From: Deltaproteobacteria bacterium
GTDB lineage: Bacteria; Desulfobacterota; Desulfobacteria; Desulfobacterales; JAUVGT01
Assembly (NCBI GenBank): GCA_030593645.1
Contig: JAUVGT010000027.1
Span: 1 to 19,967, forward strand
Direction of reading: 5' to 3'
DNA length: 19,967 nt
The notes beneath the pieces were generated by a model that worked only from the letters and a program-made list of their open reading frames with translations, was not told the origin of the DNA and ran no database searches. The position numbers and the translations under genes are program-made. Shown one piece after another: positions 6,920-15,626 of the stretch (positions are counted from its first letter, which is position 1; every line of letters starts with the position of its first letter).

Positions 6920-8260
6920 ATGAGCGAAGAAAAAAAAGCGAACACTATCATTGACTGTCTCTGTCAAGAAGGATGGGAGGCTTATATCGCGGGCGGAGCC
7001 GCCCGTGATATTATTAACGGTGAAATACCGAATGATTATGATATTGTAACCAATGCTCCTTATGAAGTCATTACCGAATTATTCGCGAAAAGGAAGATGT
7101 CCCTTGTGGGCGCGAGCTTTAAGGTGTGCATTATAGATGGTATTGAAGTCGCGACTTACAGGAAAGATAACTATTTATTAACACCAGGGAGTGTCCCCGG
7201 TGTAGTGGAGGCGAAAACCATACAGGAAGATTTGGCAAGGCGGGATTTAACCATAAACTCAATGGCATTTTGCCCATACAATGGCGACATCGTTGATGAG
7301 TATGGCGGCGTTGAAGATCTGAAAAACCGGATAATCAGATTGACCGGGAATCCTGGTGAAAGAATAATGGAAGATCCGTGCCGTATATTAAGGGCCTGCA
7401 GATTTCTTGCAAAGCTCGAAGGAAGTTTTGATCCCGCGACCTTTGAGGCGCTTAGAAAAAACAGCTTTCTTGTAATGGAAAGGGTTGCACCTGAACGGAT
7501 CAGACTCGAAATTCTAAAAACCATGCAGTATCATAAGCCCAGTATATTTTTTGACGCGCTCCATGAAATCGGCGCGTTAAAATATTTATCCCCGGGTTTT
7601 GAGTTGTGCTATCACCATGATGGCGGTGTGTATCATGGGGAAACTATAGACGAACACATTAAGATGGTTGGGGATTCTCTTTCAAAGCGAAAACCATTAC
7701 TGAGGCTTGCCGGTTTTTGGCATGATCATGGTAAACCGGCTGCTGCGGAATATCGAAATGGGAATGTTTCATTTATACGGCATGCTGTTCTGGGGACAGA
7801 AATCGTGGATCAGGAACTGATAAAATTAAAATTCAGCGTACGGGAAACAGAATTTGTAAAATCAATTGTCAGACACCATATGCGAAATATACATCCCGAT
7901 GACAAACCCAAAACAGTCCGCAAAATGTTAAAAAAGCTAAATGATGACGGTGTTAACTGGAAAGATTGGCTGCAAATCAAGATTGCGGATACAAAAGGGA
8001 ACCTGCAAAAGAAAAACTTAAACCGGAATGAAGTAAAGAAAATTGTATTTAAGATACGTAATGAACTTAAACCGGATTCCAAACAGGCGGTATTGAGTAT
8101 TAAAGATCTGGCTGTGAACGGTGAAGATGTCATGCGTACTCTACACATTAAAGCCGGTCCAAAGGTAGGAAAAGTGTTAAACAAGCTCCTGGACCATGTT
8201 CTGGATACTCCGGAACTCAATACGCGTGAAAAATTAATGAAGTTAATTCCGGAAGGCTGA
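6920..8260 (+). CDS. tRNA nucleotidyltransferase / poly(A) polymerase family (CCA-adding-enzyme-like) with a C-terminal HD phosphohydrolase domain.
   Basis: Pol-beta NTase head GGAARDIINGEIPNDYDIVT, tRNA-NT family RRD motif (DLARRDLTINSMA), and HD-domain metal ligands (FWHDHGKP ... HHMRNIHPDD). Confidence 0.8.
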   Translation: MSEEKKANTIIDCLCQEGWEAYIAGGAARDIINGEIPNDYDIVTNAPYEVITELFAKRKMSLVGASFKVCIIDGIEVATYRKDNYLLTPGSVPGVVEAKTIQEDLARRDLTINSMAFCPYNGDIVDEYGGVEDLKNRIIRLTGNPGERIMEDPCRILRACRFLAKLEGSFDPATFEALRKNSFLVMERVAPERIRLEILKTMQYHKPSIFFDALHEIGALKYLSPGFELCYHHDGGVYHGETIDEHIKMVGDSLSKRKPLLRLAGFWHDHGKPAAAEYRNGNVSFIRHAVLGTEIVDQELIKLKFSVRETEFVKSIVRHHMRNIHPDDKPKTVRKMLKKLNDDGVNWKDWLQIKIADTKGNLQKKNLNRNEVKKIVFKIRNELKPDSKQAVLSIKDLAVNGEDVMRTLHIKAGPKVGKVLNKLLDHVLDTPELNTREKLMKLIPEG

Positions 8261-8377
8261 TCATCACTAATCGGGAGACCATCATCATTAAATAACAATA
8301 TAGCTCAGGATGGGTTATGGTTGATCAGAAATGTATACTCTGGATGTTCAGTCAATCGTGAAAACAGGAAAAAGATA

Positions 8378-9298
8378 ATGAGCAGCATATTTCAGAAATT
8401 GGAAAATAAAAAACTTCTGGAACACCATCCCTCGTTTATCAGCACCGGTGTTCATTATGAGGTCGTAATGGGCTCAGTGGCTTACGGTGTTTCAAGTGAT
8501 GCTTCAGATATGGACGTATATGGGTTTTGTATTCCCCCGAAGGATTTTGTTTTTCCTCATTTGCGAGGAGAGATTCCCGGATTCAGCAAGCCGGGTTCAT
8601 CATTTGAGCAATTTCAGCAGCATCATATTTATGATCAAACGGCATGCGGCGGTAGAGGCAGGGAATATGATATAACCATATATTCGATTATTAAGTACTT
8701 TCGATTATGCATGGAGAATAATCCGAATATGATCGACAGTCTTTTTGTTCCAAGACGCTGCATATTGTACTCTACTCAAACCGGAGAATTGGTTAGAGAA
8801 AACAGGCACCTTTTTCTTCACAAAGGCGCGTGGCATAAATTTAAAGGATATGCCTTTTCTCAGGTACATAAGATGAATACAAAGCAGCCGATTGGAAAGA
8901 GAAAAAAAATTATTGAACAGTTCGGATATGATGTAAAGTTCGCATACCATGTGGTTCGGCTGTTAAACGAAGTTGAGCAGATTTTAACGGAGCACGATCT
9001 TGACCTGGAGAAAAACCGGGAGCAGCTTAAAGCGATACGGCGGGGAGAGTGGAGCAGTGAAAAAATAAAAGAATATTTCGCGTCCAAGGAAAGAGAGCTT
9101 GAATCCCTGTATACTTCAAGCAAACTTTCTCCAATACCCAAAGAATCGGAAATTCAAAACCTTTTACTTAACTGTCTTGAGCACCACTATGGAAGCCTTG
9201 AAGCCTGTATTATTCGGGAAGATGCGGCGATTAAAGCGTTAAAGGATATTGACAAAATTCTGGATCGTTTGGATATCAAAACTAAAATTAAAAGCTGA
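8378..9298 (+). CDS. Pol-beta superfamily nucleotidyltransferase, predicted-NTase (PF10127/RlaP-like) family, copy 1. The ORF track begins at TTG 8321; the ATG at 8378 has an RBS.
   Basis: GS-x9-DxD signature MGSVAYGVSSDASDMDVYGF. ~300 aa with an alpha-helical C-terminal half. It is a paralog of the next gene. RBS aggaaa precedes ATG 8378. Confidence 0.6.
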   Translation: MSSIFQKLENKKLLEHHPSFISTGVHYEVVMGSVAYGVSSDASDMDVYGFCIPPKDFVFPHLRGEIPGFSKPGSSFEQFQQHHIYDQTACGGRGREYDITIYSIIKYFRLCMENNPNMIDSLFVPRRCILYSTQTGELVRENRHLFLHKGAWHKFKGYAFSQVHKMNTKQPIGKRKKIIEQFGYDVKFAYHVVRLLNEVEQILTEHDLDLEKNREQLKAIRRGEWSSEKIKEYFASKERELESLYTSSKLSPIPKESEIQNLLLNCLEHHYGSLEACIIREDAAIKALKDIDKILDRLDIKTKIKS

Positions 9299-9380
9299 TT
9301 TAAGATGAACAGAGCCAATACCGACTCCGAATTTCGATTGAGCGCGTTATTATTTCCCCTTGAGGGGACAGGGTGATACT

Positions 9381-10145
9381 ATGAACGTAAAAGAGAAAAT
9401 ACTAACCGGTTTGCGCCGGATAGAAAAGAAGTATAACGTCAAAATTATCTATGCCTGTGAATCGGGCAGCCGGGCCTGGGGATTTCCTTCAGAAGACAGT
9501 GATTACGATGTCCGCTTTATCTATGTCCATCCAAAGGACTGGTATTTAAGTATCGTAGAAAAGCGTGATGTAATCGAGATCCCGGTTGATAACGAACTTG
9601 ATATAAACGGGTGGGATATCCGGAAGTCGCTTTCACTTTTGAGAAAATCCAATGCCCCGATTCTTGAGTGGCTATCCTCACCAATCGTATATATGAAGGA
9701 CGTTAAAATTCTGGCCCCATTGCGAACATTATCTGGAAAAGCATTTTTGCCTGAATCCGTATGCCATCATTACCTGTCCATGGCTAAGAAGATGCTTGAA
9801 AAGATCGAGAATTCTTCAAAGGTCAGAATCAAAACCTACTTGTACGCCATACGGCCTGTGCTTTGCTGCATGTGGATTATCGAGAAGGGAACCCAGCCCC
9901 CTATGCTGTTCGGTACCTTAAAAAAATTATATTTGCCAAAAGGGAAAAGCAGGGAAGAAGTTGACAAACTGCTCATCCAGAAGGCGAAAAGTCTGGAATC
10001 AGATTTAATCGACCATTCCATTGTACTTGATGAGTTCCTTTCAGTAGAAACACAAAAAATAACTGACAATATTCCCAAAAATCCCTTAAAATGTGATGTC
10101 AACAATTTTGACAGTGTGTTTAAAGAGATCCTGGAAAGTGCCTGA
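9381..10145 (+). CDS. Pol-beta superfamily nucleotidyltransferase, predicted-NTase (PF10127/RlaP-like) family, copy 2. The ORF track begins at TTG 9360.
   Basis: ESGSRAWGFPSEDSDYDVRFIYV (hG[GS]...[DE]xD) NTase signature. Conserved ...AIRPVLCCMWI...PP..F block. Confidence 0.65.
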   Translation: MNVKEKILTGLRRIEKKYNVKIIYACESGSRAWGFPSEDSDYDVRFIYVHPKDWYLSIVEKRDVIEIPVDNELDINGWDIRKSLSLLRKSNAPILEWLSSPIVYMKDVKILAPLRTLSGKAFLPESVCHHYLSMAKKMLEKIENSSKVRIKTYLYAIRPVLCCMWIIEKGTQPPMLFGTLKKLYLPKGKSREEVDKLLIQKAKSLESDLIDHSIVLDEFLSVETQKITDNIPKNPLKCDVNNFDSVFKEILESA

Positions 10146-10367
10146 TCTTAGGGGGCGCGCAAAAATAACTTCATATTTTTTACATCCCGGATTCAGGCCG
10201 GCTTTGCCCGATCCTCAATTGCAAAATTCTCGAAATAGCTCACTTGGATACATAATTTTGTTTTTACAAAAAAATATCCGGGCTGCTGACACGGGGTTGT
10301 CACTCAACTGTTGTATCAAAATACATTGCTCTAAAAACAATAAAATACTATCGCGGGGAGTTTTATC

Positions 10368-11117
10368 ATGGGGAAAAAAATAATCGATGTAAATGAAGCA
10401 GATATCGAAGAAACCGGATTTTTTTGCTATATGAGTAAGAAAAAAACCATAGGGTATAAAAACAAACTGGAATGGCTGAAATCAAGATTTTCAGAAGGGA
10501 TGAAACTAAAAATTCTTGGGGAAGGGAAAAGGGGCGTGATTGAATATATACCCGGAGAACATGCATGGAGGCCAGTCAAAGCAGAGGGCTATATGTTTAT
10601 TCACTGTCTCTGGGTAGTTGGTAAAAGCAAGGGAAACGGGTACGCAAAAGAATTATTGAATGAATGTATAAAAGATGCCAGGAAACTGAAAATGAAAGGC
10701 GTGGCCATGGTCACAAGTGAAAAGGTTTGGCTTATGAGTAAGAAGTTTCTGGTATTGCAGGGGTTTGAATCGGTCGATAAAGCGCCACCCTCTTTTGAAT
10801 TGATGGTAAATAAATTTGATAATTCAAACTTGCCTTCTTTTACCGGAAACTGGGAGAAAAAAGCAGAAAGATTTGGTTCCGGTCTCACTGTTATCCAAAC
10901 AGATCAATGCCCGTACATCGATGACGCGGTAAAACTTGTTTTGGAAGTTGGAAAAGAAATCGATTCCGAATGCAGCATCTGTAAGCTTGAAAGCAGTCAG
11001 GATGTCCGTGATTTAACCCCTTCAGCTTATGGTACATTTAGTATTGTATATAATGGTAGATTGTTGAGTTATCATTATTTAACACGAAAGGATTTATTGA
11101 AGCAAATAGGTAAATAG
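10368..11117 (+). CDS. GNAT-fold acetyltransferase-like protein with a C-terminal extension (YoaP-like).
   Basis: N-terminal region FFCYMSKKKTIGYKNKLEWLK...GYMFIHCLWVVGKSKGNGYAKELLNECIKDA resembles GNAT/YoaP acetyl-CoA-binding cores. RBS gggag precedes the ATG. Confidence 0.5.
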   Translation: MGKKIIDVNEADIEETGFFCYMSKKKTIGYKNKLEWLKSRFSEGMKLKILGEGKRGVIEYIPGEHAWRPVKAEGYMFIHCLWVVGKSKGNGYAKELLNECIKDARKLKMKGVAMVTSEKVWLMSKKFLVLQGFESVDKAPPSFELMVNKFDNSNLPSFTGNWEKKAERFGSGLTVIQTDQCPYIDDAVKLVLEVGKEIDSECSICKLESSQDVRDLTPSAYGTFSIVYNGRLLSYHYLTRKDLLKQIGK

Positions 11118-11122
11118 GTTTG

Positions 11123-11455
11123 CTATTTTGCCTGCCACATTAAATGATCCAGATCTTTTTCCATATTGTTTTCAGGTTCCGATATGGGGCCGGCCCATTC
11201 CCCTTTGTATTCTTCAACGCTGACCGGCTCCTTGTATTCAGACAGGCTCAACTGGGGGACACAAAGTTTTGAATTTACAAATAAAATACGAGGTTTGCCA
11301 CTAATCTGAGATAACGAATTGTCAGTTCGCCTATACCAGTAATTTCCGGCTTCCTGGGGTTTTTCCAATGTCCAGCAGATATTTGATTTTTCCCATGGTA
11401 ATTTCATAATAAACCCCGTTTTGAGGAAAAGCGTAAGAAGCAATCTTCTTTTCAT
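11123..11455 (-). CDS. Hypothetical protein (110 aa; may instead start at the internal MKLPWEK Met).
   Basis: Open frame only. No recognisable motifs. The first ATG lies inside the loop of a 14-bp perfect hairpin. Confidence 0.35.
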   Translation of the reverse strand: MKRRLLLTLFLKTGFIMKLPWEKSNICWTLEKPQEAGNYWYRRTDNSLSQISGKPRILFVNSKLCVPQLSLSEYKEPVSVEEYKGEWAGPISEPENNMEKDLDHLMWQAK

Positions 11456-11757: not shown

Positions 11758-12183
11758 CTACTCATCATGGGGGGACACGGATTTTCTGAGTTTTTTTGTT
11801 TTACTTCTACGCTTTTTGGATTCTAAAATCCTCTTTTTTGATGCATAAGATTGTTTCGTTTTTTTTCTTTTTTTCGGTTTTTCTGCTGCCTGTTTTATTA
11901 ATTCGACAAGCCGATCAACAGCATCCTGCCGATTATGGGTCTGGGTTCGAAAACGCCGGGCATTAATGATCAGGATACCGTTATCGGTAATCCGGTGCCC
12001 CGAAAGCGTTTTTAAACGGGCACGAACATCATCCGGAAGTGATGGTGAATTTTTTACATCAAAACGGAGCTGAACCGCGGAGGAGACCTTGTTAACGTTC
12101 TGGCCGCCCGGTCCGGAAGCACGGATAAAATCGAATTTTAGTTCATTCTCATCAATTGAAATTTCTGCTGAAATGTTAATCAT
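11758..12183 (-). CDS. arfB: ArfB (YaeJ)-type alternative ribosome-rescue factor / peptidyl-tRNA hydrolase.
   Basis: GGQ catalytic motif in SGPGGQNVNKVSSAVQLRF, followed by a lysine/arginine-rich C-terminal tail (KPKKRKKTKQ...KKRRSKTKKLRK) that is diagnostic of ArfB. 141 aa. Confidence 0.85.
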   Translation of the reverse strand: MINISAEISIDENELKFDFIRASGPGGQNVNKVSSAVQLRFDVKNSPSLPDDVRARLKTLSGHRITDNGILIINARRFRTQTHNRQDAVDRLVELIKQAAEKPKKRKKTKQSYASKKRILESKKRRSKTKKLRKSVSPHDE

Positions 12184-12235: not shown

Positions 12236-12721
12236 TTAATCGAGAAACACAACATTACTTCCTCGTATTTCACCATTGACTGCTACCCTGTACCAATGCC
12301 TTAAAATCAGGGTTTTATGATCAGGGTGACGGATCCATCCACGAACGTACAATGCGGGATCCCGGGTCATACGATTCCAACTCCAGGACTTTGCCTTGGG
12401 ATGTTTTCTGATATAACGACGTTTTTCGTTTTCAGTCAATCCCGCTGCAAGCCTGGTTCTTTCATTGATATCTTTGACCCTGGAGGCAAAAACCTGAACC
12501 GTGTAGACTGTAGTGCCGCCAACAATATATGCTTCCTGTGCCCGGTGAGGCTTATTGCCTGCTCTTACATTTGAAAGCATTATCGGTTCACCGCCTTTTG
12601 GGCGCAGGATCATCGCTTCCTTAACACTGAACCCTTCGACAGGAACAAAAAACCATTCCCCCTGCCGTTTGAATCCTTTGTTTTTACGGCGATGAAGCTG
12701 TCGTTTTTTAACATGATGCAT
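12236..12721 (-). CDS. Hypothetical basic protein (161 aa), co-oriented between rtcB and arfB.
   Basis: Intact ORF with a very basic N-terminus (MHHVKKRQLHRRKNKGFKRQ). No motif I can name. Confidence 0.5.
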   Translation of the reverse strand: MHHVKKRQLHRRKNKGFKRQGEWFFVPVEGFSVKEAMILRPKGGEPIMLSNVRAGNKPHRAQEAYIVGGTTVYTVQVFASRVKDINERTRLAAGLTENEKRRYIRKHPKAKSWSWNRMTRDPALYVRGWIRHPDHKTLILRHWYRVAVNGEIRGSNVVFLD

Positions 12722-12748
12722 TTTCTGAGACCATACCGCCAGTTCGGG

Positions 12749-13135
12749 TTATAATGCCTGCTTGGCAGCAAGTACGTTGCTGACTGTTCGGCGCGGTACC
12801 TGGGCCGCAAAAAATTCTCTTTCATCATGGCCGCAAAGCGTTTTAATGACTTCAGGATCCGGAGAAGTTCTGGCATTAAAGACTTTTGCCATTAGTAAAA
12901 GGTGGCGGTCTTTGGCCTGAACATCAGGCACAATAATATCTACTGTACCGCGAGTCCGGATGTCAAATATTTCTCCTTTTTTATCATTGATTACATCAAC
13001 GACATTATTACTGTTTTTATTATTTGCAGACCGGTCTGCAAGCCCGGAAAACATAACCCGTGCACCGATCATTTCAAATTTGTTTTTAATTATTTCTTTA
13101 TCCAATTGTTCACCTCTTTCTATAAGCGGCTCCAA
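12749..13135 (-). CDS. Hypothetical protein (128 aa, TTG start in the ORF track), co-oriented downstream of rtcB.
   Basis: Open frame in operon context with a 27-nt gap to the next gene. No recognisable motif. The start codon is uncertain. Confidence 0.4.
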   Translation of the reverse strand: MEPLIERGEQLDKEIIKNKFEMIGARVMFSGLADRSANNKNSNNVVDVINDKKGEIFDIRTRGTVDIIVPDVQAKDRHLLLMAKVFNARTSPDPEVIKTLCGHDEREFFAAQVPRRTVSNVLAAKQAL

Positions 13136-13309: not shown

Positions 13310-14515
13310 TTATCCCTTCACAACGCCAAGCGGTCTAAGCTTCACAATTGGCTTGATCAGATCAAGTTCTGATTTAATAACCGCATCAATATCTTTATAT
13401 GCCTGGGGGGCTTCACCCAGATCGTATAATCCTTTGGTTTTACCTCTTTTTACTTTTTTCCATCTGTCGTATACGATTCCATCCATGGCCCGGTCACATT
13501 CTTCAGGTGTCAGGTTCTGGGTGGCCTGGTTTCTTCCCATTACTCGTCCGGCACCATGGGAACAGGACATAAAGGATTCCGCGGTACCCAGTCCTTCAAC
13601 AATATATGAAAATGAGCCCATGGAACCGGGGATAATTCCGGTCTCGTTCACTTTTGCTGACGTTGCGCCTTTTCTGTGCACCCAGACATTCTCACCAAAA
13701 TGGTTTTCGAGGGCCGCGTAATTATGGTGAATATTAATGGGCGCATTGAAAGTCACATTGCTGAAAATAGAGGAGAATGCTTCCATAAAGCGGTTCATGA
13801 TTCTCCGCCTGTTTTCTTTTGCATAGGATAGCGCGAAATTCATGTCTCGAATATAGCCCTGTCCTTCCCTGCTGTTAACCGGAAGAAATGCCAGATCTTT
13901 ATTCGGAATAACGGAGTAATATTTGCGGTTCAATTCAATGGCAACTGAATGATGATGTCTTGCGATGACATTTCCAAGATGCCTTGACCCTGAATGAATC
14001 ATCAGCCATACAAATTCATCATCCCCATCCTGGATCTCAATAAAATGGTTTCCACCTCCAAGAGTTCCAAGGTTTCGGCTCGCCAGATCGCCCACATGGT
14101 CTGTAAACCACCCCGTTTCATGGAATTCTTCAATATCTTCATCAATGCCTTCCCATGTTTGCGGTTTTTTATGAGCGTGTCCTTCTCCGCACGGAACAAA
14201 CGTTTTCACGAGGGTTACGATTTCACGCAGCTGTTCTTTTGTGACTCCGGAAGCCAGAATATCCGTCTTAACCGCTCCCATACCGCATCCAATATCAACT
14301 CCCACGGCATTCGGGATAACCGCGTTTTTGCATCCAATCACTCCTCCGATAGGCATTCCATAACCCTGATGGCAGTCGGGCATTAGAGCCACGTGGCGAA
14401 ATACAACCGGATGCATGGCAAGATCAGAGGCCTGAGCCCATGCCCTTTCTTCGATATCTTTGCACCATGATTTGATCGGCACTTTAAATTTATCTTCATT
14501 TTTTACCCATTCCAT
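13310..14515 (-). CDS. rtcB: RNA-splicing ligase RtcB (3'-phosphate/5'-OH RNA ligase). The preferred start is the MEWVKNED Met, which has a ggaggag RBS; the longest ORF would start at 14560.
   Basis: Hallmarks MPDCHQGYGMPIGG, GVDIGCGM, GGGNHFIEIQ, HSGSRHLGN, HHNY and CSHGAGR are all present. Confidence 0.92.
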   Translation of the reverse strand: MEWVKNEDKFKVPIKSWCKDIEERAWAQASDLAMHPVVFRHVALMPDCHQGYGMPIGGVIGCKNAVIPNAVGVDIGCGMGAVKTDILASGVTKEQLREIVTLVKTFVPCGEGHAHKKPQTWEGIDEDIEEFHETGWFTDHVGDLASRNLGTLGGGNHFIEIQDGDDEFVWLMIHSGSRHLGNVIARHHHSVAIELNRKYYSVIPNKDLAFLPVNSREGQGYIRDMNFALSYAKENRRRIMNRFMEAFSSIFSNVTFNAPINIHHNYAALENHFGENVWVHRKGATSAKVNETGIIPGSMGSFSYIVEGLGTAESFMSCSHGAGRVMGRNQATQNLTPEECDRAMDGIVYDRWKKVKRGKTKGLYDLGEAPQAYKDIDAVIKSELDLIKPIVKLRPLGVVKG

Positions 14516-14588
14516 GGTATTTCTCCTCCACGAGTATTTTCTGTAAAACAGATAAGGCATACCTGCTCTATGCCCGCCATGAAGGTTT

Positions 14589-15626
14589 TTACTTCATAGT
14601 GTATGGTTGACCATTGATTTTAATTTCACAGGCGTTTTCATCATACTGGTCAATGGAAACATCAATATCAAGGAACTGCTTGAGTACTTCAATATTGGTT
14701 AACGTATGCCTCGACGGGGTAAGGGTTCTGAATTTACCTCCCCCGGCCAAAGCCATTGGAATTAAAAGCTGATCAGCCAGGTAGCCGGCAACCGGCACTT
14801 TCGAGTTTAGATATTTCTGAACAAGCGTTACTGTTTTGTTTGCAACTTTTTCAGCAGTAACACCTCTTTCCCCGAATCCTGTAAACATTTCAGTGATGTT
14901 TTCGCTTTCAATTTCAACGGTCAGGATGTTCCCGGGTCCCATGGAACCCGTTACATCTTCTGCAATAAGGTCCTCCCGGGCCATATTCAGCTTGTCTTTC
15001 AATATTTTTAGTTCTCTGTTGGCGATGCTAATCGGCAGTTTTGCCGTTTTAGCAATGGCCCTTTGATTGATAACCCTGCCTCTTGCCGATAGATCTATTT
15101 TATTTAAGCTCCGGGTCGGTTTGACATTGACTGTGAACCGTCCTCCGCCCGCGGGATAGAAACCGGGCCGTTCAAGGACGGACGTGACTTCCGGACCCAT
15201 CTTATTGATCAGCGGCAAAAAAGCCTTCACTAGAAAATCAAAGGGCGGGGCATATGGGTTATGTGTGCCACCCTCCAGAACAACTCTTGAAGAATTTTTC
15301 GCAAGTAGCAGGGACGGGAGTATCGTTTGAAGTACAAGCGTACAGCTCCCGGCAGTACCGACCGAGAAAAGATAATCTCCCGCGTCAACAGTAACAGGTG
15401 AAAAAAATAGTTCTCCTGATCCGATGCTGTTGCCTTTAATTTCAGCTTTTCCGATTTCAGAGGCTGCGTTCGCCGCGGTCAGATGCTGTCTCATCAGACC
15501 CGGTTTTCTTCGGCCGGCCCGGATATTTTTAATCAAAAAAGGTTTCCCGGTCACAAGTGACATAGCCAGTGATGTCCGCAGGACCTGTCCGCCTCCTTCT
15601 CCAAATGAACCGTCAATATGTATCAT
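14589..15626 (-). CDS. rtcA: RNA 3'-terminal phosphate cyclase RtcA.
   Basis: The N-terminus IHIDGSFGEGGGQVLRTSLAMSLVTGKPFLIKNIRAGRRKPGLMRQHL is near-identical in pattern to E. coli RtcA. Also GSCTLVLQTILP and YLADQLLIPMALAGGG. RBS gagga. Confidence 0.92.
   Translation of the reverse strand: MIHIDGSFGEGGGQVLRTSLAMSLVTGKPFLIKNIRAGRRKPGLMRQHLTAANAASEIGKAEIKGNSIGSGELFFSPVTVDAGDYLFSVGTAGSCTLVLQTILPSLLLAKNSSRVVLEGGTHNPYAPPFDFLVKAFLPLINKMGPEVTSVLERPGFYPAGGGRFTVNVKPTRSLNKIDLSARGRVINQRAIAKTAKLPISIANRELKILKDKLNMAREDLIAEDVTGSMGPGNILTVEIESENITEMFTGFGERGVTAEKVANKTVTLVQKYLNSKVPVAGYLADQLLIPMALAGGGKFRTLTPSRHTLTNIEVLKQFLDIDVSIDQYDENACEIKINGQPYTMK

Follow-up and report, generated by a model that had tools for sequence, protein, structure and literature searches.

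In the present study, we analysed a stretch of 19,967 nucleotides (nt) from contig JAUVGT010000027.1 of a Deltaproteobacteria bacterium (assembly GCA_030593645.1), hereafter called the window, in which two small open reading frames (ORFs) of 128 and 161 amino acids (aa) lie between the RNA ligase gene rtcB and the ribosome-rescue gene arfB (Table 1). The minus strand from 11.7 to 17.8 kb is one string of co-oriented genes, in the order sigma-54 promoter, tRNA-like RNA, Band-7 gene, rtcA, rtcB, the two ORFs and arfB, and the activator gene rtcR is divergent from it. The sigma-54 box is the sole exact match to the consensus within the window, and no terminator-like sites were found on the minus strand between positions 11000 and 13400, that is, from rtcB to arfB. 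The two ORFs thus lie within an RtcR/sigma-54-controlled rtcBA operon, with the genes of which they are predicted from the sequence to be co-transcribed. A previous sequence-only reading had described them as two uncharacterised ORFs, co-oriented with rtcB and arfB and separated from these by gaps of 27-174 nt, and this geometry was confirmed, the gaps being 174 nt from rtcB to the 128-aa ORF, 27 nt between both ORFs and 52 nt from the 161-aa ORF to arfB. As the shared frame and the homologs described below show, the 128-aa ORF is the N-terminal and the 161-aa ORF the C-terminal half of one interrupted gene of an unnamed family, for which we use the working name X.

Table 1. Features of the window, in order of position
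Feature	Position	Strand	Evidence or remarks
CCA-adding enzyme with HD domain	6920-8260	+	
RlaP-family nucleotidyltransferases, two paralogs	8321-9298 and 9360-10145	+	2-4 kb from X
GNAT/YoaP protein	10368-11117	+	
110-aa ORF downstream of arfB	11123-11455	-	No Pfam or NCBIfam match
arfB, ribosome-rescue peptidyl-tRNA hydrolase	11758..12183	-	NCBIfam ArfB equivalog, 188 bits (cut-off 100), E 4.8e-56
Gene X, whole interrupted gene	12236..13105	-	118 codons, TAA, 9 codons, 161 codons; about 289 aa if uninterrupted
161-aa ORF, ATG start	12236-12721	-	
X, C-terminal half, 161 codons	12236..12721	-	Basic linker, RRKNKGFKRQGEWFF hairpin, GNKPH, RHPDHKT, N-x-E, C-terminal Asp (VVFLD)
X, nine sense codons from the stop to the next ATG	12722..12748	-	PELAVWSQK; resembles PDLAVFSQK in the linker of an intact relative
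X, in-frame TAA	12749..12751	-	In place of the conserved Lys of AKQAL-K-P, at the junction of two linker helices
128-aa ORF, TTG start as first called	12749-13135	-	
X, N-terminal half, 118 codons, beta-rich domain	12752..13105	-	Motifs DRHLLLM, LCGHDEREFF (GxDE), end AAKQAL
rtcB, RNA 3'-phosphate ligase	13310..14560	-	PF01139, E 7e-107
rtcA, RNA 3'-terminal phosphate cyclase	14589..15626	-	PF01137, E 3e-75, and PF05189
SPFH/Band-7 protein, first protein gene of the operon	15783..16898	-	PF01145, E 2.9e-35
Hairpin of about 145 nt	16911-17054	-	Between the tRNA-like RNA and the Band-7 gene
tRNA-like RNA between the sigma-54 promoter and the Band-7 gene	17506..17570	-	Rfam tRNA, 44.4 bits
Sigma-54 -24/-12 box, exact consensus, facing the operon	17751..17766	-	TGGCACatgcgTTGCT (TGGCAC-N5-TTGC)
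rtcR, divergent sigma-54 activator with CARF-like RtcR domain	18022..19644	+	PF06956 and PF00158; NCBIfam RNA_repair_RtcR equivalog, 793.7 bits (cut-off 650)

Several observations led to the recognition of a single gene. First, both ORFs are in the same frame, and the translation from 13180 to 12236 is one continuous frame with a single internal stop, reading VPRRTVSNVLAAKQAL*PELAVWSQKMHHVKKRQLHRRKNKGFKRQGEWFF across it (the asterisk marks the stop); one TAA and nine sense codons are all that separates the two ORFs. Second, a search with the 161-aa ORF returned 171 proteins, most of which are 255-282 aa long and cover 90-100% of the query, and the extra N-terminal ~110 residues of these proteins align with the 128-aa ORF. 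Third, among the loci of X collected from genomes (L003-L082, n = 80) and from IMG/VR (L089-L168, n = 80), the homologs are uninterrupted at 78 of the 80 genome loci and at all 29 viral loci holding both halves. At the junction, the sequence is AAKQAL*PELAVWSQKMHH in the window and TAKQALKPDLAVFSQKRKK in a relative of 66% identity (over a fuller stretch, VPRRKVSNVLTAKQALKPDLAVFSQKRKKKKKKHLNRRKNKGFVRQGEWFF), and the TAA of the window occupies the position of the family's conserved Lys, the majority residue of this column (K122, with a share of at least 70% among 81 sequences). In the model of a full-length homolog, the site is bordered by the helices H114-121 and H124-132. Since the frame is shared and the homologs run through the stop, we conclude that there is one interrupted gene, not two. 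In other words, both open frames noted earlier are real, but they are halves of one gene; likewise, the very basic stretch noted at the N-terminus of the 161-aa ORF (MHHVKKRQLHRRKNKGFKRQ) is present, but it is really the interdomain linker of a two-domain protein. The start of the 128-aa ORF, previously given as an uncertain TTG, was also revised: the family consensus MxxxxLxxxFxxxGAR is in register with an in-frame TTG at 13105-13103, and a Shine-Dalgarno-like AGAGGTG is located at 13117-13111, 5 nt upstream of this codon. Therefore, the start was moved to the TTG at 13105, which gives an N-terminal half of 118 codons. An alternative genetic code was ruled out, as the other genes of the window end normally in TAA or TAG. 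In annotation, a single gene flagged as interrupted should replace the two ORFs.

The family X comprises two-domain proteins of about 270 aa (homologs, about 250-300 aa). A profile search of 1.84 billion cluster representatives (50% identity) retrieved 2,996 clusters at E<=1e-3 and 656 at E<=1e-30, and the best 150 profile matches are nearly all 250-300 aa long and aligned end to end. When one genome per species was scanned, at least 557 species carried X, mostly Planctomycetota and Acidobacteriota, with further carriers in Verrucomicrobiota, Bacteroidota, Gammaproteobacteria, Chloroflexota and Clostridia. Consistent with the earlier statement that neither ORF holds a recognisable motif, that of archease included, the Pfam and NCBIfam scans of both window ORFs gave no match; a Pfam scan of 104 family members gave no consistent match, only scattered sub-threshold ones, and the proteins of the family are labelled "hypothetical" in the source databases. 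The characteristic motifs are GxDE(R)xxF, AxxAL-K-P, RRxNxxFxRQGEWFF, (K/N)PH, RHxDHxT, NxE and an invariant C-terminal Asp. Conservation was scored in an alignment of 81 sequences, including IMG/VR relatives at 24-30% identity, with the numbering of homolog P0008. The invariant or nearly invariant residues are D97, E98, F102, A117, L121, R150, Q151, G152, E153 and F156, followed in the C-terminal domain by H187, H249, H252, T254, N266, E268 and the last residue, D278; D97, E98, F102, A117 and L121 do not vary among the 81 sequences, R150, Q151, G152, E153, F156, H252 and D278 are found in 81 of 81, H249 in 79 and H187 in 78. The window copy retains every one of these superfamily-invariant residues, which come from both halves. 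It carries the N-domain motif GxDE(R)xxF and the AxxAL(K)P helix (LCGHDEREFFAAQVP...AAKQAL), the basic linker with RRxNxxFxRQGEWFFxP (HRRKNKGFKRQGEWFFVP) and the C-domain motifs (GNKPH, IRHPDHKTL, VNGE and VVFLD*); it is a split member of the family, not a single uninterrupted ORF of about 250-300 aa.

The AlphaFold2 model of a full-length homolog, built on a 104-sequence alignment, is one compact globule with a predicted local distance difference test (pLDDT) score of 92.2 and a predicted template modelling score (pTM) of 0.88, in which an N-terminal helix is followed by a seven-strand beta meander, two linker helices and a second beta-rich domain opening with the RQGEWFF hairpin. The C-terminal half of the window (the 161-aa ORF, with 111 aligned sequences) was modelled with a pLDDT of 88.3. 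Thus, the structure prediction proposed as a check by the sequence-only reading gave confident models, but a Foldseek comparison of both models with solved structures revealed no significant relative (best E 0.9). The best sequence-profile match in the PDB, ribosomal protein L1 (E 0.36), was rejected as a chance RQxEWF match. An internal duplication was also rejected, as the N- and C-terminal domains matched in hhalign with a probability below 1% and are not detectable duplicates. No nuclease of the HNH or PD-(D/E)xK type was detected by profile or fold core. In summary, X is unnamed in Pfam and NCBIfam and is without a solved structural relative.

The genes neighbouring X were determined by clustering the six-frame ORFs located no more than 6 kb from X in the 80 genome loci, and the recurrent clusters were annotated and confirmed by Pfam. 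A recognised RNA-repair gene is present in the flank (<=10 kb) at 30 of the 80 genome loci and, when only loci of 12 kb or more are counted, at 17 of 41. The most frequent neighbours are a TROVE/Ro60-like protein (9-13 of 80 loci; downstream, same strand), RtcB (11 loci; mostly upstream of X, same strand) and an HNH endonuclease (9 loci; directly downstream of X). RtcR was observed at 6 loci and is directly divergent from X in three planctomycete contigs (L011, L037 and L061), and KptA/Tpt1, also at 6 loci, adjoins X with a median gap of 37 nt. RtcA (4 loci), Pnkp (3), Band-7 (2), RlaP (1) and a protein with an RF-1 domain (1) were less frequent. As a genome of several megabases usually holds about one copy of each of these repair genes, the enrichment near X is large. 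In Limnoglobus roseus PX52 (NZ_CP042425.1; L054, 4751-10807), for example, an intact X, at about 4,192,182-4,192,985 of that accession, is divergent from an operon of Hen1, an R2K ATP-grasp protein and Pnkp, and one planctomycete locus has the order X, HNH, tRNAs, two Band-7 genes and the RF-1 domain protein. In three Acidobacteriaceae loci (L007, L013 and L046), a divergent rtcR is accompanied by rtcB, rtcA, a gap of about 600 nt (~9420-10000), X, TROVE/Ro60 and a tRNA array; this Ro-containing locus could hold a Y-RNA-like non-coding RNA in the gap, and an Rfam scan of six loci, L007 and L046 among them, gave no Y RNA families at the gathering threshold.

These neighbourhoods bear on the proposal of the sequence-only reading that the two ORFs are accessory factors of RNA or ribosome repair. 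The link to repair is supported by the 30 loci with repair genes, but there are not two factors; the conserved synteny of homologs on which that proposal had been made to depend was found, in a family of 2,996 clusters and at least 557 species. The suggested link to arfB and ribosome rescue is not specifically supported for the family: arfB adjoins X only in the closest relatives of the window, to which one planctomycete locus with an RF-1 domain gene may loosely be added. The order N-terminal half, C-terminal half and arfB is kept in an 86%-identical relative (L083), and the order with arfB also in L088.

The strongest association of X, which had not been foreseen, is with long tRNA gene arrays. 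Such arrays, densely packed around X, first came to light in the Rfam scan of six loci, and ARAGORN was then applied to all loci, giving a total of 275 tRNA genes in 1.0 Mb at the 80 genome loci and 560 in 1.5 Mb at the 80 IMG/VR loci. At least three tRNA genes were found at 17 of the 80 genome loci and 36 of the 80 IMG/VR loci, and at least ten at 9 (up to 31) and 21 (up to 46), respectively; at 20 of the 80 genome loci, a tRNA gene lies within 1 kb of X. The tRNA genes of the arrays are nearly all on the strand of X (examples are L016 7116-12375, L007 12959-16718, L012 63-4027 and L095), and the place of X among them is often fixed; one gammaproteobacterium and two planctomycetes, for example, share the order Ser(gct)-Arg(tct)-X-His(gtg)-[HNH]-Trp(cca). 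The position in the array is conserved in Planctomycetota, Acidobacteriota, Bacteroidota, Gammaproteobacteria and Verrucomicrobiota, and an HNH gene is located next to X at 9 genome loci and 12 viral loci. The X-bearing arrays match the "L-arrays" described previously, which are horizontally spread and normally silent (PMC8421152). In Anabaena, the L-array is induced together with the linked HNH gene and rtcB upon impaired translation, and the HNH gene of long arrays has been proposed to be a homing endonuclease (PMC8421152). Homologs of the hypothetical gene all4315 are also linked to arrays (PMC8421152), and the regulon of the repressor TrcR includes the array together with rtcB, HNH genes, a slipin/Band-7 gene and GNAT genes (PMC10272220). 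No family with the features of X is described in PMC8421152 or PMC10272220. A tblastn search of X against GenBank phages and PLSDB plasmids gave no match, and therefore the IMG/VR contigs are not proof of phage carriage; these contigs may be megaphages, prophages or misbinned cellular contigs. In the Planctomycetaceae metagenome-assembled genome (MAG) of L045, ARAGORN reported a tRNA with the anticodon CTA (CUA), labelled "Pyl", at ~12658 on the minus strand, about 1.9 kb downstream of an intact X; this tRNA is a potential amber suppressor.

ARAGORN found no tRNA genes in the window, and the locus is not itself an L-array. The tRNA-like element of the operon, about 180 nt downstream of the sigma-54 box, has an acceptor stem of only 3 base pairs and for this reason is not called by ARAGORN. 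A truncated tRNA-like element, with a mean identity of 80% to that of the window, lies directly upstream of Band-7 at two X loci, one planctomycete (L016, 12312-12375) and one gammaproteobacterial (L006, 3106-3168). Between the tRNA-like RNA and the Band-7 gene of the window, a near-perfect hairpin with a minimum free energy of -67.3 kcal/mol (z = -8.8 vs shuffles) ends about 13 nt ahead of the Band-7 start codon; this hairpin may act in processing or attenuation, or be a repeat element. On the opposite strand, a string of RNA-repair genes (6920-11117) converges on the rtc operon; the operon and this string of CCA-adding, RlaP and GNAT genes together make the whole 13-kb region an RNA-repair island. 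The 110-aa ORF downstream of arfB, on the same strand, is a possible further gene of the operon. For a flanking gene of housekeeping type, the closest named relatives are from Desulfobacterales/Deltaproteobacteria MAGs, with 73-74% identity.

A repair system of Band-7/SPFH proteins with a tRNA-like RNA, and RtcB-PrfH pairs for ribosome rescue or repair, were reportedly described by Burroughs and Aravind in 2016. The window resembles both in having Band-7, a tRNA-like RNA, RtcB and a GGQ release-factor-type hydrolase in one operon: the SPFH gene is preceded by the tRNA-like RNA and rtcB lies downstream, as in the former system, whereas the release factor is ArfB, not the PrfH of the latter pairs. 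The planctomycete locus with two Band-7 genes, a tRNA-like RNA and the RF-1 domain protein is similar to the Band-7 system as well. ArfB has been reported to be without an extensive conserved neighbourhood (PMC6514570). The cyanobacterial L-array genes (the HNH gene all8564, rtcB, dpsA and all4315; PMC8421152) share with X the theme of co-oriented arrays, HNH and rtcB. Like the TrcR regulon (PMC10272220), the window contains slipin/Band-7 and GNAT genes, but its operon is under RtcR/sigma-54 control and has no tRNA array. Thus, the operon type of RtcR, sigma-54, rtcBA, Band-7 and a tRNA-like RNA is already known, as are tRNA L-arrays with HNH and rtcB, and the new component is X. The family is not described in PMC6514570, PMC7824862, PMC9503650, PMC7790460 or PMC12776372, although a mention in the broad 2016 survey of RNA repair is possible.

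Other accessory genes of RNA repair are comparable with X in part. Similar to X, RlaP (PF10127, a Pol-beta nucleotidyltransferase) became known through repeated linkage to different RNA-repair systems, RtcB operons and Pnkp-Hen1 among them, and its role was inferred from neighbourhoods first and tested later (PMC12776372). X has no sequence or fold similarity to Pol-beta nucleotidyltransferases, differing from RlaP in its motifs, its mostly beta-strand structure and its much stronger link to tRNA arrays. Archease, the activator of RtcB, is likewise a small accessory protein encoded beside rtcB, and X is not an archease by sequence. The 2H phosphoesterases (LigT/ThpR and CPDase) resemble X in being bilobed, each lobe having a conserved His where a strand begins, and the C-terminal domain of X has an H-x-T (DH-K-T); the two HxT/S motifs and the bilobed 2H fold that define this superfamily were not found in X. 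A cyclic phosphodiesterase would be a natural partner of the adjacent KptA/Tpt1, given the pathway of PMC9503650. The adjacency of X to KptA, together with the one HxT motif, would by analogy fit an enzyme creating or exposing a 2'-phosphate, and we regard this as a lead only.

Herein, we propose that X is a good candidate for an undescribed tRNA- or RNA-repair factor, on the basis of its conserved synteny. The explanation that best accounts for the observations jointly, to which we give a probability of roughly 0.6, is that the window carries a single interrupted gene for an enzyme of the RtcR response that acts on broken tRNA ends, and in which fission is tolerated. RtcR would sense damaged tRNA, by the signal described in PMC7790460, and the operon including X would then be made. 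The Arg/Lys-rich linker of X would hold the RNA, and a cluster of His, Asp and Glu at the domain interface would act on broken tRNA or RNA ends, either by processing them or by recognising them on behalf of RtcB, Pnkp-Hen1 or KptA; the healing or trimming of ends by X would let RtcB, Pnkp-Hen1 or KptA complete the repair. In the organism of the window, the N-terminal half would end at the TAA, translation of the C-terminal half would resume at the ATG that follows after 27 nt, and both chains would assemble again. An enzyme rather than a scaffold is favoured because about a dozen polar residues from both halves are invariant down to 24% identity and the model is one compact globule, and the invariant residues D97, E98, R150, Q151, E153, H187, H249, H252, T254, N266, E268 and D278 are inferred to be a putative active site. 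Recognition and processing of broken tRNA ends is our best guess at the activity, drawn from conservation and neighbours. Several points weigh against this proposal. No particular chemistry is indicated by a fold or profile match, repair genes are absent from the flank at 50 of the 80 genome loci, and the window lacks the tRNA array that many X loci possess. A protective or adaptor role on tRNAs, or a role in mobility or conflict within tRNA-array islands, are the alternatives.

With respect to the stop, the relatives of the window are informative. The closest of these, L083, comes from another sample and is 86% identical in DNA; its Lys codon is intact (AAG), but it has TAG and TAA six and eight codons further along the linker and ATA where the window has ATG. 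In L004, a Planctomycetota MAG with 46% identity to the query homolog, a TAG is located ten codons past ALKP in the same linker. Stops in the linker of about 20 codons, which is about 7% of the gene, are thus present in three lineages (the window, L083 and L004), and stops elsewhere in one, the Clostridia MAG L059, which has two at conserved core positions and is a plain pseudogene. Under uniform placement, at least three of four lineages would have their stops in the linker with p ~1e-3, or ~1e-2 once the linker's richness in Lys, Gln, Arg and Trp codons is taken into account; both are rough figures of our own and not the result of a tool. The ratio of nonsynonymous to synonymous substitution rates (dN/dS) between the window and L083 is 0.137 in the N-terminal half (dS 0.81) and 0.101 in the C-terminal half (dS 0.62), no higher than against the intact relative L084, and both halves are, on these ratios, under purifying selection. 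Moreover, two clade members (L001 and L002) lack the N-terminal domain altogether, and in all five clade members the stretch from RRKN to the terminal Asp is exactly 151 codons without stops, with nonsynonymous differences (pN) of 0.06-0.24 compared with synonymous differences (pS) of 0.41-0.85. For the 18 codons of the RRKN...RQGEWFF motif, pN is 0.05-0.17 vs pS 0.5-0.8, also in copies where the motif precedes the first canonical start codon. Genes with the C-terminal half only are also found in an unrelated context (L086 and L087), and P0063 is a genuine gene of this kind; P0093, considered as a natural split gene, was rejected as a frameshifted full-length gene, probably on a long-read contig. 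In the 65%-identical L002 (701-1198 of JAANSX013216217.1), the C-terminal half is present alone and its frame opens within the last 25 nt of rtcB, in the -1/+2 frame; in both L002 and L001, no ATG, GTG or TTG precedes RRKN...RQGEWFF, and a CTG is found two codons before the motif. Translation in L002 may start non-canonically or by way of a frameshift fusion to RtcB, or the frame may be a remnant.

From these comparisons, we hypothesize that the linker is the one place in X that tolerates interruption and that the halves, or at least the C-terminal half, are still made, for which we consider the odds to be about even. Split expression is easy to picture in the window, where an ATG follows the stop by 27 nt. 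The evidence against a functional split is nonetheless considerable. Interruptions are rare in the family, residues from both halves contribute to the putative active site, and the ATG at 12721 has no obvious Shine-Dalgarno sequence. In L083, L004, L001 and L002, no canonical start is available between the interruption and RRxN...RQGEWFF, and these four copies need non-canonical initiation or readthrough, or are young pseudogenes. L059 further shows that decay does occur in the family.

The same facts are the case for a recent pseudogene, in which the TAA killed the gene and the ORFs are decaying remnants without function. The invariant residues are divided between the halves of the window copy, and 78 of the 80 genome copies and all 29 viral copies are uninterrupted; four of the five known clade members are disrupted, each in a different manner, and neither L083 nor L004 has a canonical restart codon. 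We consider this explanation the lesser one, although a serious rival, for the following reasons. A dN/dS of 0.10-0.14 in both halves against L083, at dS 0.6-0.8 and not above that against the intact L084, argues against decay, as does the window copy itself, which has no frameshift and no other stop in about 280 codons and keeps all invariant residues. In addition, the stops of three independent lineages all fall in the linker, with L059 the only one elsewhere, and the C-terminal halves that have lost the N-terminal domain keep exactly 151 codons with pN far below pS.

A different objection concerns the role of the family rather than the stop. X might not be a repair factor but a mobility or conflict gene of tRNA-array islands that merely travels with repair genes. 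Examples would be a nuclease that works with the adjacent HNH endonuclease, or an effector that damages RNA. Its conserved array positions, often beside HNH (9 genome and 12 viral loci), the horizontal spread of long arrays with their proposed homing endonuclease (PMC8421152), its presence on IMG/VR contigs and the 50 genome loci without a repair neighbour would all be expected of such a gene. However, X also occurs free of arrays, divergent from rtcR, beside kptA at a median gap of 37 nt and opposite Pnkp-Hen1, and in the window it lies inside an RtcR operon with neither an array nor an HNH gene. The lack of matches in GenBank phages and PLSDB plasmids, and of any detected nuclease fold or motif, also speaks against it, and we consider this role for X quite unlikely.

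To return to the stop, slightly less credit still is given to programmed or conditional readthrough, in which the stop in the linker is leaky and full-length X is made at a low level, or only under impaired termination or with a suppressor tRNA, which would tie the dosage of X to the state of the translation apparatus. The stops of the linker recur at different codons (TAA in the window, TAG and TAA in L083 and TAG in L004), the codons between stop and motif are conserved, in L083 and L004 without a canonical restart there, and X adjoins a release-factor-like rescue gene in the window and lies elsewhere in tRNA arrays, one with a CUA tRNA (L045). Despite these features, no structure or sequence context promoting readthrough was identified, L083 would need two such events within three codons, the other genes of the window end normally in TAA or TAG, and the great majority of homologs are free of stops. 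Finally, a sequencing or assembly error in an intact gene with the true codon AAA (Lys) is very improbable: the TAA differs by one base from a Lys codon, and the surrounding stretch, on a contig of metagenome origin, is rich in A, but over the 301 nt compared, TAA included, the window agrees fully with the separate Logan assembly of run SRR18936878 (although the same reads possibly lie behind both), the change is a substitution and not a change of homopolymer length, and linker stops are also present in related contigs of other samples.

The single interrupted gene of a tRNA-end-processing enzyme, with a tolerated fission, therefore remains our preferred explanation, and it has consequences both for the window and for the family. 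For the window, the stops recurring in the same linker lend interest to the choice between a working split gene and a young pseudogene. That these recurrent stops are a readthrough or reinitiation switch coupling the dosage of X to translation is a less likely possibility. For the family as a whole, we tentatively extend the proposal, in a form that we ourselves hold to be doubtful: X may be an enzyme family of a new fold and a signature of both mobile long tRNA arrays and several unrelated repair systems (RtcB, Pnkp-Hen1, KptA, Ro and Band-7), performing a step of tRNA damage control that the known enzymes do not cover, such as end-healing or end-trimming chemistry, or the protection of tRNAs from anticodon nucleases. 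Limnoglobus roseus, as a cultured and tractable carrier of an intact X, makes direct testing possible. RtcB-type operons and long cryptic tRNA arrays occur widely, and for neither is it well understood which lesions are addressed and which helper activities are required. For example, the end-processing step that would make the products of RlaP compatible with RtcB is missing (PMC12776372). With its conservation, its confident model and its invariant His, Asp, Glu and Arg residues, X is an obvious candidate for one such missing activity.

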